Shown here: one piece after another, positions 56,850-60,628 of the stretch | How positions within the stretch are numbered: position 1 is the stretch's first letter | Layout: every line of letters begins with the position of its first letter | Source: a virus | Taxonomy: Duplodnaviria; Heunggongvirae; Uroviricota; Caudoviricetes | Strand: one strand, 5' to 3' | Length of the DNA: 64,000 bases | IMG/VR virus record: IMGVR_UViG_3300010049_000010 | Span: 64,749 to 128,748 of that record | The notes under the pieces: generated by a model | The model's database searches: none | What the model was told of the DNA's origin: nothing | What the model saw: the letters and a program-made list of their open reading frames with translations, nothing else | Program-made: the position numbers and the translations under genes

Positions 56850-57254
56850 TTAGTCATCAAATAATATATCTGTAGTTTTTTCTAGTCTATTTTCTAATTC
56901 GGCTATTTTCTTATTTTTTATATCATCAAAATCATAAGCTTCTTCAAACTCTTTATCTAAGAAGTCATTAAATTTCATGTGAGCTCTGTCCATTATATCT
57001 TCCATTATTTCGTAAAAGATTTTAACTTCTTTTAAAGTGCATCTTTGTCTTAGTATAGTGTCTATTTTATGTATAGTGTCTTTGTATTCATCTTGTCTAT
57101 CATAACGATCTTCAAGATTAAAATTCTTAATTAGCGTTTTAAGAGACGTAGTTTTGAACGCTTTAGCTATTTGCGTTTCAATAGTTTGATATTTTCCATA
57201 TCTTTCCCAAAATCTATTTTGACTAAGTTCAGACGACATTATTTTCTCCATCAA
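56850..57254 (-). CDS. hypothetical protein
   Basis: ORF only. Confidence 0.4.
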   Translation of the reverse strand: MMEKIMSSELSQNRFWERYGKYQTIETQIAKAFKTTSLKTLIKNFNLEDRYDRQDEYKDTIHKIDTILRQRCTLKEVKIFYEIMEDIMDRAHMKFNDFLDKEFEEAYDFDDIKNKKIAELENRLEKTTDILFDD

Positions 57255-57810
57255 ATTCTATTTTAATATTTCTAGTTGCGGAAATCATATCGGCGATTGC
57301 GATAATATAGTGTTCAAATTTAGTCGGTGTTTCACCTAATTTCTTTCCAGTTTTATCTGTATTCCATCTGGACATATGTGAGTCAACAATGTCAGCGATT
57401 AAATCTAATTTTACTTTTAATTCTCCGCCAAAGAATACTCCAAATTCTCTAATTTCATTTCCCATTAAAAGCGGATGCTCAGATTGAGTATGTTCTTGAT
57501 CTTTAACAAACTTTTTTAAGTCATGCAAAATCGCCGCGGCGTATGGAATATCCCAAGCTTCTTTGTCATCATATTGAGGCATCATAGATAGAATTCTTTC
57601 AGTGAATAGACATACTACTTTAGTATGTCGAATTAACCCGCTTTTTCCTAGACTAAATTGAGGATGATATTTTCCAGAAGAACTGGCTGGACCTTCTGCA
57701 TTTTTATCATCACATTTCTTTGCAATAATGTCTTTAACAACACGTCGTAGTTCTTCGTTGTTTATCTTATCGAGTTCGTAACTTAAAGCTTTTAATAATC
57801 TTCTACCCAT
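57229..57810 (-). CDS. HD-domain phosphohydrolase (paralog of the ORF at 43019)
   Basis: SSSGKYHP … AAILHDLKKF gives the HD motif. Confidence 0.55.
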   Translation of the reverse strand: MGRRLLKALSYELDKINNEELRRVVKDIIAKKCDDKNAEGPASSSGKYHPQFSLGKSGLIRHTKVVCLFTERILSMMPQYDDKEAWDIPYAAAILHDLKKFVKDQEHTQSEHPLLMGNEIREFGVFFGGELKVKLDLIADIVDSHMSRWNTDKTGKKLGETPTKFEHYIIAIADMISATRNIKIEFDGENNVV

Positions 57811-57814
57811 TTAA

Positions 57815-59347
57815 TTATATTAACGAGTTGTGCCAATCGTCAAATTCAGGTTTATTTATTACTTTTGCGCTAAAATATTTTTTATCATTTATTATAATAA
57901 AAATTCTTGAATCTTTATATAAAAATTTATCCACATTGATAGCTGGAGCTACAGGTTCAGATGCTCCTGTCGGCCAACTTAATGATTTTTCTATTTCTAA
58001 TATATCTTTTCTTAAGTTTTGATCTCGATAAAATCTAGACTTAAATGGAATGCCTTGCTTAAAAGATTCTTCTAATTCATTTTTAAATCTCAATACTTGT
58101 CGTCTTGAACCAGTAACTTTATAACAAAGAATTGGTGAATCATAATTATTGATATAATCCCCACCTTGCTGATATCTATCATAATTTGGTGACATATTTA
58201 CTTTCCAACCAGTCCAAGTATTTTCCCACATTGATAATGGCATATCAATTTGATTACCATCTTTATTATTTATTTTAGGTATCAGCGGTGGTGTTGGCGG
58301 AGTTTCTAAGAAGTAAAAGAAATATGTGTCTGCTAATAATTTATTATCTAATAATTCAGATTTTTTTGTATAATATTCATAATTAAAAAGTGTGCCTATA
58401 TATATCGTATTACTAATAACTTTTTCTGCAAATTCAAAATTTACTTCTAAATGATAATCTGCATCTTCTTCTAAAGTATCTACTTGAAAAGACATTTGAT
58501 TAGCATCTTTTATCAATATACCATTTTTAAACCATTGATATTCTGGAAAATAATTTATATAATATCCAACAGCATTATCAATTTCAATAAGATTTTTTTG
58601 CGTAACATCTTTTACAGGAATATCTTTAAGATGAGGATTTTCTACTAATGCCTTTTTAATTTGATTTATTCCATGGGATTTAATTGACCAAGCATTAGTT
58701 ACATTATTATTTATAACGATAACTTCTAAATTATGAGTATAACTTGAAGTTGTAATATCTATTGATAGTTCAGATATACCCATATTACCCATATCTGAAT
58801 TTTCTGATATTTGTACGATTCTATTATTTAAAAACCATAACCATAAAGGACTGGGAATATTCGTAATCTCACTAATTGGTTTTCCAAAGCCAGGACTTGA
58901 AATTCTAACACCATCATCTTTATCAATACTTGTATTATAATAGTTATGCTCTTGCCATTGAGTTAATGCCCCGCTTGCAACAGTTCCAATATTTGATGCT
59001 AAAAATACTGGATGACTTAATATTGGAGTTGTTGATCCAACTCTAATTTTAACAATAATATAATTATCAATTAAATCATTATTATTAATTGTATAAAAGT
59101 GTAAATTACCTTGAGATAAAGTTGATGTTGGAGTTAATTGAATTCCTTCATTCGTTAAATTTTTTATTTGATTCAAACTTTTAAGATGTACACTTACGAT
59201 ATTAAATCCACTTAATAATTCAACAGCAAAATGTGTAATATTATCAGTAGTTAACAAAACAAATATTTCATCAGATTGTAATGTGTATAACCAGGGATTT
59301 TCTTCAGTCCCGGCACCAGCTCTTGTAGCTCTATAAAACTTTACCAT
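57815..59347 (-). CDS. hypothetical protein (510 aa; possibly structural)
   Basis: ORF only. Confidence 0.4.
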   Translation of the reverse strand: MVKFYRATRAGAGTEENPWLYTLQSDEIFVLLTTDNITHFAVELLSGFNIVSVHLKSLNQIKNLTNEGIQLTPTSTLSQGNLHFYTINNNDLIDNYIIVKIRVGSTTPILSHPVFLASNIGTVASGALTQWQEHNYYNTSIDKDDGVRISSPGFGKPISEITNIPSPLWLWFLNNRIVQISENSDMGNMGISELSIDITTSSYTHNLEVIVINNNVTNAWSIKSHGINQIKKALVENPHLKDIPVKDVTQKNLIEIDNAVGYYINYFPEYQWFKNGILIKDANQMSFQVDTLEEDADYHLEVNFEFAEKVISNTIYIGTLFNYEYYTKKSELLDNKLLADTYFFYFLETPPTPPLIPKINNKDGNQIDMPLSMWENTWTGWKVNMSPNYDRYQQGGDYINNYDSPILCYKVTGSRRQVLRFKNELEESFKQGIPFKSRFYRDQNLRKDILEIEKSLSWPTGASEPVAPAINVDKFLYKDSRIFIIINDKKYFSAKVINKPEFDDWHNSLI

Positions 59348-59357
59348 ATTAAATAGT

Positions 59358-59891
59358 TCAATTTACTCTTTTTTCAATAAACGAAATAAGCTCCTTGAGA
59401 TTCTTTCCATCAAATTCAAATATCGTTTCTTCTGTATTTCTAGCGTCTCGTAAACAAGCGGAAAATTTGATGCATTGATTTACAATCACATCCATCGGAA
59501 CATTTGATCTGTCTTTTTCGTTTTCTAAATCTTTTCTCACTCTAGATTGGCATAATTCTACGTTTTCAGAGTCCATCATAAATATGTAAATGACTTCACA
59601 ATCTACATCAGTTGCTTTTTGAAGTCTGCTCCAGCTTGTGTTTGTCGCATTGAAATATACGATTTTATTATCAGCAAGCCCGTCTTTGATATTTTCATAA
59701 GCTAAATCAAATATCATTCGTCCTTTAGATTGGTCATTTACTGAGCCCAATAAAGTTCTTCTTAAATCATCCGGTTCGACATTTTCAAAAGATTCCGTTC
59801 CAAAATAAGTTTCAAGCCTATCTTTCAAATAAGATTTTCCTGATCCTGAACATCCTATAGTAACTAGCAATAAAGGTGTATTAGTTCTCAT
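59358..59891 (-). CDS. polynucleotide 5'-kinase (T4 Pnk kinase-domain-like, stand-alone)
   Basis: LLVTIGCSGSGKSY lines up with T4 Pnk IILTIGCPGSGKST. The 177-aa length matches the kinase domain only. Confidence 0.7.
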   Translation of the reverse strand: MRTNTPLLLVTIGCSGSGKSYLKDRLETYFGTESFENVEPDDLRRTLLGSVNDQSKGRMIFDLAYENIKDGLADNKIVYFNATNTSWSRLQKATDVDCEVIYIFMMDSENVELCQSRVRKDLENEKDRSNVPMDVIVNQCIKFSACLRDARNTEETIFEFDGKNLKELISFIEKRVN

Positions 59892-60628
59892 TATCCACTC
59901 CTCGTTTTCTTAGCAGGACCAGATGATTTTACATAAGGCTCCACTATCATTATATCTCTTACATCTAAATTCAAAGTATTTATATTATTTGGTTTCCAAT
60001 TTTTAGTCCAATGCTCATCTGTTTGCAAGTGATTTTCTCTGACATATTTAGCGTAGTTATGCTCGAAAGTGCTTTCATCAAATGACTTAGCATTTCTAAT
60101 AACGTAACCCTCACAAGTTTGTCCATGATTTCGTAATCCCCAATTATAATTAGAATAATATCCCTCATGTATGTCAAAATAACTGAGATTTTTTCCTCTA
60201 GCAATAACTGGTACAGTTGGCAAATCTAATATCTCGCATATTTCTACTGTATCATCCCAAGATAAAACGGTGGTTCCTTCTGTTATCATAAAAACGTAAA
60301 ATGGATGTTTTAACGCATATTTTATAGAATGCTCAGCATACATATTCTCGCCGCATATTCTCATATTAGGTTGGATATTAGAACATATTTTCGCATATAA
60401 AGCGGCAATCATTGTTCTCCAAGCTGCAGGACCTGAATCCATGCTTCTTGCATGATAATAATTTGGGCCAATCACTGTATTTTCACCGTCTAATTTTTCA
60501 GTGATTATAATTTCTTTATGTTGAAAATCAGTAATGAATGCGTCTATGTCATCTGCTGTCCTACCCTTACTCCAGGGAAGGTGACCAATTCGAGGAAATT
60601 TTCTTTTATAAAAGTCTGCTGTATGCAT
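59891..60628 (-). CDS. RNA ligase (Rnl2-like nucleotidyltransferase domain)
   Basis: Motif I ITEKLDGEN (compare KIHGTN) and motif IV CEGYVIRNAK. 245 aa. Confidence 0.55.
   Translation of the reverse strand: MHTADFYKRKFPRIGHLPWSKGRTADDIDAFITDFQHKEIIITEKLDGENTVIGPNYYHARSMDSGPAAWRTMIAALYAKICSNIQPNMRICGENMYAEHSIKYALKHPFYVFMITEGTTVLSWDDTVEICEILDLPTVPVIARGKNLSYFDIHEGYYSNYNWGLRNHGQTCEGYVIRNAKSFDESTFEHNYAKYVRENHLQTDEHWTKNWKPNNINTLNLDVRDIMIVEPYVKSSGPAKKTRSG

Follow-up and report, generated by a model that had tools for sequence, protein, structure and literature searches.

The window analysed here, a stretch of 64,000 nucleotides from a jumbo phage contig of ~328 kb, carries a kinase, a ligase and an HD-domain gene close together, which raises the question of whether their products act as one RNA-repair pathway and which of them would process the 3' end. 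The original prediction had read these ORFs as a tRNA-healing set, and all three are present, each in the family that it named, on the minus strand at 59891..60628 (ligase), 59358..59891 (kinase) and 57229..57810 (HD protein). The gene order is ligase, kinase, an ORF of 510 amino acid residues (57815-59347) and HD, with three separate genes and no fusion; as foreseen, HD lies two genes away from the ligase-kinase side, that single ORF separating it from the kinase. The ligase stop codon overlaps the kinase start codon in the sequence TAATG, and the remaining cassette genes are 4-10 nt apart. Since the domain matches are strong, the ORFs long and the arrangement kept elsewhere, the cassette is not due to chance. 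No tRNA genes or further RNA-repair genes were found within the 64-kb window. The same phage encodes a distinct ATP-dependent DNA ligase that includes an OB domain (34694-36064), and genes for PnuC and an AAA_28 (NadR-type) protein are located 1-4 kb from the cassette.

The kinase gene (59358..59891, minus strand) encodes a stand-alone Pnk-type 5'-OH polynucleotide kinase of 177 amino acid residues, matching Pfam AAA_33 (E 2.7e-7) and PHROG 505 'polynucleotide kinase' (E 2e-8). The near identity of its P-loop to that of T4 Pnk holds, as TIGCSGSGKS in the window kinase and TIGCPGSGKS in T4 differ at one of 10 positions; the T4 Pnk reference sequence used has 100% identity to record X03007.1. 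An hhalign alignment of the kinase family profile with the kinase domain of T4 Pnk gave a probability of 98.4% and an E value of 7.6e-15. Against PDB, the same profile ranked the solved Pnk kinases above all other P-loop kinases, with E values of 6e-17 for the CthPnkp kinase, 2e-14 for Pnkp1 and 9e-10 for T4 Pnk, followed by PSTK (2e-8). The P-loop residues G13-C-S-G-S-G-K19-S20 are invariant among 11 homologs, as are D41, R44 and T83, which align with the acceptor-site residues D35/R38 of T4 and D38/R41 of CthPnk and with the Thr. With the lid residues R117 and R128, the invariant set aligns with K21, S22, D38, R41, T80, R116 and R123 of CthPnk, in which the Asp is the general base, the Arg belongs to the acceptor site and the Thr anchors the first phosphodiester (PMC3902929). 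The predicted essential catalytic residues of the kinase are thus all conserved. A polypeptide of 177 residues leaves no space for a phosphatase domain; Pfam and NCBIfam scans found AAA_33 only, without the C-terminal DxDxT (HAD) 3'-phosphatase domain of T4-type bifunctional Pnkp or any other phosphatase domain; the absence of HAD is as the original prediction had stated.

The ligase gene (59891..60628, minus strand) encodes an ATP-dependent RNA ligase of 245 residues that consists of the nucleotidyltransferase domain only, according to Pfam (RNA_ligase, PF09414, E 8e-26), motifs and fold search. Motifs I and IV are where they had been recognized, KLDGEN at residues 45-50 and EGYVIRN at 173-179, and the motif map comprises I (K45-L-D-G-E-N), III (G93-E94), IV (E173-G-Y-V-I-R178) and V (K194..R197). 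Residues K45, D47, G48, E49, G93-E94, E173, G174, R178, K194 and R197 are invariant among 55 homologs. In the AF2 model (pLDDT 83), the protein stops ~45 residues past motif V, with this tail modelled at low confidence. All 34 significant matches of the model in a Foldseek search against PDB are RNA ligases (T4 Rnl2 at 1.6e-6, REL1, Rnl3, NgrRnl and Trl1), with E values of 1e-6 to 5e-4, whereas DNA ligases are weaker, with E values above 2e-3. On its predicted fold, the protein is RNA-ligase-like, fitting RNA ligases before DNA ligases. With the Rnl2 family model TIGR02307 it reached 19.4 bits, where the cut-off is 197; no C-terminal nick-sensing domain was found, and it also fell far under the NCBIfam cut-off of the RNA-ligase model TIGR01209. 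An Rnl1-type ligase was rejected: PF09511 is absent from the Pfam matches (E cut-off 0.1) and the fold search places T4 Rnl1 only at position 36 (E 2.6e-3).

The HD domain claimed for 57229..57810 (minus strand) was recovered by Pfam (HD, E 1.2e-5). Together with profile searches against PDB, this identifies a stand-alone YhaM-type HD phosphoesterase or nuclease of 193 residues without an OB fold. Among solved structures, the YhaM HD domain is far closer to it than any other; with the NCBIfam YhaM model it reaches 19 bits, the cut-off being 460. Residues H49, H62, H96-D97, K100, H112, H145 and D174 are invariant among 62 homologs. The YhaM two-metal ligand set (H..HD..HH..D) is largely retained: H62, H96, D97, H145 and D174 are kept, the equivalent of YhaM H251 is M146, and H49 and H112 are additionally invariant. 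By homology to this two-metal site, the HD protein is probably binuclear. The N-terminal OB fold is not in the protein, its model being all-helical from residue 3 and its alignment beginning at YhaM residue ~113. YhaM is a Mn-dependent 3' exonuclease that prefers ssDNA, and the point mutation Y76A in its OB domain drastically lowers ssDNA binding (PMC12107432). The window protein is our proposed 3'-end-processing enzyme; since it falls in a family of 3'-5' exonucleases, its chemistry could be 3' trimming instead of simple phosphate removal. A dNTPase of the SAMHD1/Dgt type was rejected, as the structural and sequence similarity by which such an enzyme was to be recognized was not found. A CCA-adding-enzyme-type HD was also rejected, since the HD profile reached no more than 12-21 bits against the HD part of Pnk-HD and HD-Pnk proteins and the best PDB relative is YhaM. 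Some members of the HD family show an ExoX-like C-terminal motif. Distant members occur in DNA-replication or unrelated settings (SPO1 gp32.6, Clostridium phages and Bacilli), and the window has a second HD paralog at 43019-43858, far from kinase or ligase genes.

The cassette contains further ORFs, all on the minus strand. The 510-residue ORF between kinase and HD (57815..59347) is an orphan with no Pfam, PHROG or NCBIfam match, no homologs in the viral contigs or phage collection searched, and no counterpart at the equivalent position in L001, L036, L037 and L047. Only its residues ~250-320 match anything, namely repeats of giant proteins of 1-4 kaa, and it is probably an insertion that is not part of the repair module. 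Downstream of HD, a conserved ORF of 79 residues with a CPC motif (56368..56607) shows no PDB or Pfam match; tblastn places it shortly downstream of HD at all the related loci (L001, L034, L036, L037, L047, L049 and also L039), and this synteny makes its product a candidate accessory protein. Two other syntenic ORFs encode 134 residues (56850-57254, sharing 26 nt with the 3' end of HD) and 73 residues with a basic KRRRRAY tail (56623-56844). Neither has a family match in Pfam or PHROG. In L001/L047 and L034, their homologs travel with the cassette, and the 134-residue homolog of L001 is directly upstream of the ligase. A terminator scan found a hairpin with a 9-bp stem, five G-C pairs and a T-run at 61095..61116 (minus strand), which is probably the upstream boundary of the cassette's transcription unit. 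The two terminator-like sites of the region are this same hairpin read on both strands, a count not above shuffle expectation.

Linkage of the three genes is also found in other phages: ligase, kinase and HD directly adjoin or overlap one another in L001, L036, L037/38 and L047/48, and L034 shows the same linkage with an extra kinase paralog. The kinases of these related contigs are only 39-51% identical to the window kinase, so the contigs are not near-identical genomes. In L049, kinase and HD are still neighbours with no ligase adjoining and with PRPP synthetase and PnuC near, and L039 has HD without kinase or ligase. In the jumbo-phage contigs L024, L031 and L032, HD-AAA_33 fusion proteins adjoin ligase homologs, and the ligase homologs of other jumbo phages adjoin a CCA-adding enzyme or an Rnl1-type RNA ligase.

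A Pnk kinase is adjacent or fused in 73 of the 80 best-matching bacterial ligase loci, and an HD domain is usually alongside Pnk at those that were checked, which is the HD-Pnk/ligase layout reported from Runella; in Brevibacillus, a Pnk-HD fusion is directly upstream of the ligase. Bacterial Pnk-HD and HD-Pnk proteins whose genes stand beside ligase homologs have kinase domains that the window kinase profile matches. The window HD profile matches only one of these 80 loci, and the HD of the Hahella HD-Pnk best matches an A-adding enzyme, not YhaM. HAD_PNKP does occur in a Methanobacterium neighbour of a ligase homolog. The kinase-HD adjacency kept in related phages, and the kinase-HD fusions by the same ligase family in bacteria and jumbo phages, agree with the proposed place of HD in the gene set. 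According to PMC6097658, the Runella slithyformis HD-Pnk (Munir & Shuman 2017) joins an HD 2',3'-phosphoesterase to Pnk and heals both ends; its ORF overlaps that of a ligase, the only one from an HD-Pnk operon to have been studied, which forms ligase-AMP and sealed none of the standard substrates tried. The replacement of HAD by HD had been put forward as uncharacterized, and this part of the original prediction falls: the Runella enzyme is already characterized, and HD-like phosphatases in jumbo-phage RNA repair are noted by Iyer et al. 2021 (PMC7824862).

On balance, we favour reading the three genes as one RNA heal-and-seal module of the jumbo phage. This retains the core of the predicted tRNA-healing set, with a Pnk kinase, an RNA-ligase-like ligase and an HD protein linked by kept adjacency, while its T4 analogy is loose and the novelty of the swap is dropped. 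From the family identities, catalytic residues and linkage we infer the substrates, HD chemistry and biological role as follows. The Pnk-type kinase would phosphorylate the 5'-OH end, the YhaM-type HD metalloenzyme would leave a 3'-OH fit for ligation in place of a 2',3'-cyclic phosphate or 3'-phosphate, and the small ATP-dependent RNA ligase would seal the 3'-OH to the 5'-phosphate via lysyl-AMP on K45. A non-orthologous YhaM-type HD would have replaced the CCA-enzyme-type HD of bacterial systems. The likely role would be to reverse host RNase-based defence, e.g., tRNA cleavage, and tRNA cut by an anticodon nuclease is a plausible substrate. A bolder version, which we hold only tentatively and think rather doubtful, is that the YhaM-type HD, perhaps with the 79-residue CPC-motif protein, represents an unrecognized class of RNA 3'-end-healing enzyme, non-orthologous to the HAD, calcineurin-type, 2H and CCA-type HD enzymes; its route might be removal of the terminal nucleoside 2',3'-cyclic phosphate.

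Several observations stand against the heal-and-seal module. The nearest characterized relative of the HD protein is an ssDNA-preferring exonuclease and neither a phosphomonoesterase nor a cyclic phosphodiesterase. Met takes the place of one YhaM metal ligand (H251), the distant HD kin lie in DNA-replication or unrelated settings, and the window paralog and the HD of L039 come without kinase or ligase neighbours. Furthermore, the Runella operon ligase sealed none of the standard substrates tried, the unrelated 510-residue ORF interrupts the cassette, and the window is without tRNA or other RNA-repair genes. Some of these points favour a pathway in which kinase and ligase form the RNA-repair pair and the HD protein acts as a 3'-5' exonuclease like YhaM, possibly with the 79-residue protein as partner, that either trims damaged 3' ends or serves unrelated ssDNA/RNA turnover, its place next to the kinase being in the latter case lineage-specific synteny. 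The proximity to YhaM (PMC12107432), the ExoX-like motif of some family members, the HD genes of SPO1-like and Clostridium phages, of L039 and of the second window paralog, none of them with a kinase or ligase, and the 79-residue ORF, which tracks HD and not kinase or ligase, all point this way. However, kinase-HD adjacency, often with overlapping ORFs, persists across contigs at 39-51% kinase identity to the window, and independent kinase-HD fusions beside the same ligase family show that the module needs an HD activity. In addition, the cassette yielded no further 3'-phosphoesterase, and the protein lacks the OB domain, where Y76A cuts YhaM ssDNA binding (PMC12107432). We judge this pathway unlikely.

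The module could instead mend DNA breaks with 5'-OH and 3'-phosphate ends, e.g., host-nuclease cuts in the phage genome. The Runella HD-Pnk is called a DNA/RNA end-healing enzyme in the title of its original paper, as cited in PMC6097658, YhaM prefers ssDNA (PMC12107432), and the distant SPO1 HD homolog is part of a replication module, with an exonuclease and a DNA ligase close by. This appears very unlikely, as the ligase fits RNA ligases before DNA ligases and lacks the DNA-ligase OB domain, the phage has its own canonical DNA ligase, and ligase homologs in other jumbo phages adjoin a CCA-adding enzyme or an Rnl1-type RNA ligase. Nucleotide metabolism tied to the nearby NAD-salvage genes, with HD as a dNTPase or nucleotidase and the kinase acting on small molecules or nucleotides, would account for PnuC and the NadR-type protein close by and for the PRPP synthetase and PnuC near the kinase-HD pair of L049, and AAA_33 is a broad kinase family; we regard it as scarcely credible.

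Defence systems that cleave RNA are common, and how phages counter them is being actively studied. The cassette reveals no new principle; it indicates that the bacterial ligase/Pnk/HD repair module is also found in jumbo phages, as three genes and with a different, YhaM-type HD. It offers an independent, compact protein set for reconstituting the pathway, lets one ask whether YhaM-type HD enzymes process 3'-phosphate or 2',3'-cyclic-phosphate ends, and provides another route to the natural substrate of ligases encoded beside HD-Pnk. If the HD protein were a new healing class, the whole YhaM family might act on phosphorylated 3' ends, and the phage trio would be a tractable system for finding that substrate.

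Compared with T4 Pnkp and Rnl1, the cassette shares a homologous kinase with the same catalytic residues, a heal-and-seal logic and phage encoding; however, its kinase lacks the HAD (DxDxT) phosphatase domain and its ligase has no C-terminal tRNA-binding domain. The T4 parallel originally drawn therefore stands for the kinase domain and is loose otherwise, the ligase not being Rnl1-type. Unlike the YhaM/Cbf1 3'-5' exonuclease of Bacillus and Staphylococcus, the HD protein has 193 residues versus ~314, no N-terminal OB domain, Met in place of H251, and a kinase and ligase gene context. The accessible part of the survey by Iyer et al. 2021 (PMC7824862) reports jumbo phages that combine Rnl-type ligases, Pnk, phosphoesterases and rare HD-like phosphatases, and does not describe a ligase-kinase-YhaM-type-HD cassette with small ORFs, which Burroughs & Aravind 2016 may cover. 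The Runella HD-Pnk operon is similar in its Pnk-type P-loop kinase, HD metallo-phosphoesterase, small PF09414-type ligase and overlapping ORFs, although the ligase kinship is suggested by the gene arrangement; as in HD-Pnk operons, the small ATP-dependent ligase gene overlaps the window kinase gene. Runella-type HD-Pnk has an N-terminal HD fused to a C-terminal Pnk, whereas the window genes are separate, kinase then HD, with an ORF between. Furthermore, the HD of HD-Pnk is of the CCA-adding-enzyme type ('HHAEGDV..HT..HDIGKP'), whereas the window HD is in the YhaM clade. What appears new, and is modest, is the split three-gene arrangement and a YhaM-type HD in place of a CCA-enzyme-type one. 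In our opinion, the module is fairly probably the phage form, with split genes, of the bacterial systems that pair a ligase with HD-Pnk (or Pnk-HD).

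The ligase, kinase and HD-domain ORFs of the original prediction were all found, on the minus strand of a gene-dense window with a G+C content of ~31%. The stop codon of the ligase gene (59891-60628, 245 aa) overlaps the start codon of the kinase gene (59358-59891, 177 aa) in the sequence TAATG. They are followed, after 10 nt, by an ORF with no assigned family (orf510; 57815-59347, 510 aa) and, after a further 4 nt, by the HD protein gene (57229-57810, 193 aa), both also on the minus strand. A strong terminator-like hairpin (61095-61116) is located ahead of the cassette block, and no second one was found between it and position 54000. 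The promoter scan gave 51 matches, which is not above the shuffle expectation of 42.8 ± 6.3; a sigma-70-like 11/12 match (57843-57814) lies at the 3' end of orf510, just upstream of the HD start.

A recorded 328,413-bp contig encodes proteins identical to the HD protein and the kinase, and therefore the virus is a jumbo phage known from metagenomes alone. Megablast of positions 56800-61100 against 50,697 phage records gave zero matches, so this region has no close sequenced relative; the close relatives are metagenomic contigs only, L034 (329 kb) and L001/L047. The window also encodes a family A DNA polymerase with a 3'-5' exonuclease (18436-20541, minus strand), an LPD3 domain protein (46840-47334, minus strand) and an M23 peptidase (51112-51717, plus strand), and ARAGORN predicted no tRNA genes across its 64 kb. 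NAD-salvage-type genes, encoding the NMN transporter PnuC and a NadR-like kinase protein of the AAA_28 family, are found around the cassette (52947-53951 and 55719-56381, both minus strand), and in the viral contig L049 a PRPP synthetase, PnuC and a radical-SAM protein (5742-8004) lie near a kinase-HD pair. This neighbourhood may represent a counter-defence or auxiliary-metabolism island.

The kinase matches Pfam AAA_33 (2.7e-7), the PHROGs annotation polynucleotide kinase (2e-8) and, in NCBIfam, the N-terminus of bacterial Pnkp. Solved polynucleotide kinases ranked first when a profile of 11 homologs was compared with known structures (CthPnkp kinase, 6e-17; Pnkp1, 2e-14; T4 Pnk, 9e-10), and hhalign against the T4 Pnk kinase domain gave a probability of 98.4%. 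The predicted near-identity to the T4 P-loop holds, with TIGCSGSGKS and TIGCPGSGKS one position apart (the T4 comparison sequence being 100% identical to X03007.1), and no phosphatase domain was found in the kinase, as had been proposed. Its invariant residues K19, S20, D41, R44, T83, R117 and R128 align, in that order, with K21, S22, D38, R41, T80, R116 and R123 of CthPnk, whose roles have been described, including D38 as the general base (PMC3902929).

Searching PDB with the single sequences of the ligase and the HD protein was uninformative, and both needed family profiles and AF2 models. Assignment of the former as an RNA ligase was borne out by Pfam RNA_ligase (PF09414, 8e-26), and motifs I (K45-x-D47-G48-E49), III (G93-E94), IV (E173-G174..R178) and V (K194..R197) are invariant across 55 homologs. 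It falls below the NCBIfam cut-offs of the Rnl2 and TIGR01209 RNA-ligase models, and profile searches by sequence give at best marginal matches to solved structures. Foldseek with the AF2 model (pLDDT 83) gave 34 significant matches, all of them RNA ligases, among them T4 Rnl2, REL1, archaeal Rnl3, Naegleria Rnl5 and fungal Trl1, with DNA ligases ranking below. The protein has no accessory domain and is a nucleotidyltransferase domain only. In many phage homologs, ~140-170 aa without a Pfam match are added at the N-terminus, as in PHROG 24030 (L002, L003, L006, L013, L018, L024 and Acinetobacter phage ME3, L043 3545-4624); scans of L002 and ME3 placed the start of the ligase domain at about residue 170-185.

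The HD-domain assignment is also upheld (Pfam HD, 1.2e-5), and the protein belongs to PHROG 5889 (4e-34), a family of unknown function. Residues A42, H49, P50, G58, L59, H62, H96-D97, K100, H112, H145 and D174 are invariant in 62 homologs, with the family pattern PASSSGKYHP...GL.RHT...HD..K...HP...HM.RW...D. The top PDB matches of the profile were YhaM/Cbf1 (4.7e-8 and 3.6e-6, covering the whole domain), and YhaM was the sole significant PDB match when the AF2 model, of very high confidence (pLDDT 96), was searched with Foldseek. YhaM itself, a 3' exonuclease that forms hexamers and depends on Mn, carries an OB domain at its N-terminus and binds its two metals through H163, H193, D194, H250, H251 and D274 (PMC12107432). 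The phage protein retains five of these six ligands, with Met at the position equivalent to H251, but lacks the OB domain. A second YhaM-type HD paralog (43019-43858, plus strand, 279 aa; family HMM E-value 4e-43) directly follows a 1171-aa DUF6267 ORF (39494-43009), shows 29% identity with the cassette protein and has a C-terminal extension of ~90 aa; therefore, the phage carries two YhaM-type HD proteins in differing contexts.

Viral-contig relatives of the ligase were screened with the window proteins. Ligase, kinase and HD genes are directly contiguous, with overlapping ORFs, in L001/L047/L048, L036 and L037/L038. The closest relative, L034, shows the order ligase, kinase, second kinase paralog, small ORF and HD. 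In L049, the kinase is followed by an 88-aa ORF and then by HD, and no ligase adjoins them. Kinase identity of the linked loci to the window is only 39-51%, so the linkage is conserved and does not reflect one genome resampled. Among the HD members sampled, linkage to kinase or ligase holds from 44% identity upward and is absent at 42% and below. HD homologs below ~42% that stand without either gene are found in L039, in SPO1 (gp32.6, within the replication module), in Clostridium phages and in cellular genomes (Bacilli and others).

The second kinase paralog of L034 (9171-9689) is divergent, with 27% identity to the window kinase. It lies between kinase and HD, the same spot as orf510 in the window, which marks this junction as an insertion hotspot. 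No Pfam, PHROG or NCBIfam family matched orf510, and no homologs were found in viral or phage collections. Against 1.8 billion representatives, it gave only a ~70-residue repeat-like match (residues ~250-320, motif YQWFKNG...) to repeats of giant proteins of 1-4 kaa, which we take, from this motif and without a family match, to be Ig-like. A part in the module, for example as an RNA-binding or NTase component, was considered and dropped: orf510 is an orphan unique to the window and missing at syntenic loci, and it is therefore treated as an insertion at the kinase-HD junction.

Further ORFs lie downstream of HD, all on the minus strand. A 79-80-aa ORF with an invariant CPC motif (56368-56607, 79 aa in the window) is found downstream of HD in L001, L034, L036, L037, L039, L047 and L049, that is, at every related locus, even in L039, which has neither kinase nor ligase. 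It has no Pfam match and its PDB profile search was blank. Its product may be a partner of the HD protein, and possibly a stand-in for the OB fold of YhaM as a detached OB- or SH3-like domain. L001/L047 and L034 also show synteny between the cassette and two further ORFs of the window, one of 134 aa (56850-57254) and one of 73 aa with a basic KRRRRAY C-terminus (56623-56844), although in L001 the 134-aa homolog directly precedes the ligase and does not follow HD.

With the families, catalytic residues and linkage observed, the cassette most likely works by heal-and-seal, on putative RNA substrates and in a presumed anti-defence role. The kinase would add a phosphate to the 5'-OH end, the HD protein would turn the 2',3'-cyclic phosphate or 3'-phosphate end into a 3'-OH, and the ligase, via K45-AMP, would seal the healed ends. 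In the leading alternative, the HD protein would remove nucleotides from the 3' end or act as a nuclease in a role of its own, a reading favored by its relationship to YhaM, by an ExoX-like C-terminal motif in some family members and by its presence elsewhere without kinase or ligase; its chemistry could thus be exonucleolytic rather than that of a phosphatase. The literature search found nothing relevant on the action of YhaM on cyclic-phosphate ends. A dNTPase-only reading was rejected on structural grounds, since YhaM is the closest structure and five metal ligands are kept, which makes that activity unlikely. Roles of the cassette in the nucleotide pool or in repair of DNA ends are less likely than heal-and-seal; the phage separately encodes a canonical ATP-dependent DNA ligase with an OB domain (34694-36064, minus strand).

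Elsewhere, a fused HD-AAA_33 protein is beside or near the ligase homolog in jumbo-phage contigs L024, L031 and L032. Furthermore, a CCA-adding enzyme with an HD domain adjoins it in L008 (8663-10162) and L010 (2886-4385), and a T4 Rnl1-type ligase lies near it in L027-L030 (9606-10838); these two kinds of neighbor point to tRNA-related contexts. Ligase homologs are present in at least 587 bacterial and archaeal genomes, and, of the 80 best ligase loci, 73 have a kinase HMM match in an ORF that is fused to the ligase or next to it. According to Pfam, Brevibacillus shows a Pnk-HD protein (~320 aa) directly upstream of the ligase; Lysinibacillus and Paenibacillus have ORFs that are the same in size and position. 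Hahella and a Chitinophagales MAG show an HD-Pnk (~400-440 aa) directly downstream, with similar ORFs in other phyla; one Methanobacterium has a T4-like Pnk-HAD by the ligase homolog, and actinomycetes carry ligase-X-Pnk as one polypeptide. In these fused proteins (570-710 aa; L053, L092 and further loci of actinomycetes and myxobacteria within L063-L131), an N-terminal ligase is joined to a C-terminal Pnk by a middle region of ~200 aa, in which Pfam HD was detected for one of the three ORFs scanned (L127). These fusions may be trifunctional repair enzymes.

The bacterial loci match the arrangement of Runella, where the ORF of HD-Pnk, a characterized 2',3'-phosphoesterase and 5' kinase, overlaps the upstream ligase ORF (PMC6097658). 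From this matching arrangement, we infer that the Runella ligase belongs to the same family. One published finding calls for caution: the Runella ligase formed ligase-AMP, but no standard substrate was sealed by it. The HD domains of the bacterial fusions are of CCA-enzyme type (HHAEGDV..HT..HDIGKP), in contrast to the YhaM-type domain of the window; the top match of the Hahella HD domain is A-adding enzyme and not YhaM. Against the fused domains, the HD profile from the window reaches no more than 12-21 bits, and it matches one of the 80 bacterial loci. Therefore, the phage clade swapped in a non-orthologous HD. Replacement of HAD by HD in 3' healing, taken in the original prediction to be uncharacterized in phages, is already established in bacteria, and Iyer et al. 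(PMC7824862) describe HD-like phosphatases in jumbo-phage RNA repair. What appears to be new is the split into three genes, an HD of YhaM type in such a cassette, and the conserved small ORFs (79-aa CPC-motif, 73-aa and 134-aa) traveling with it.
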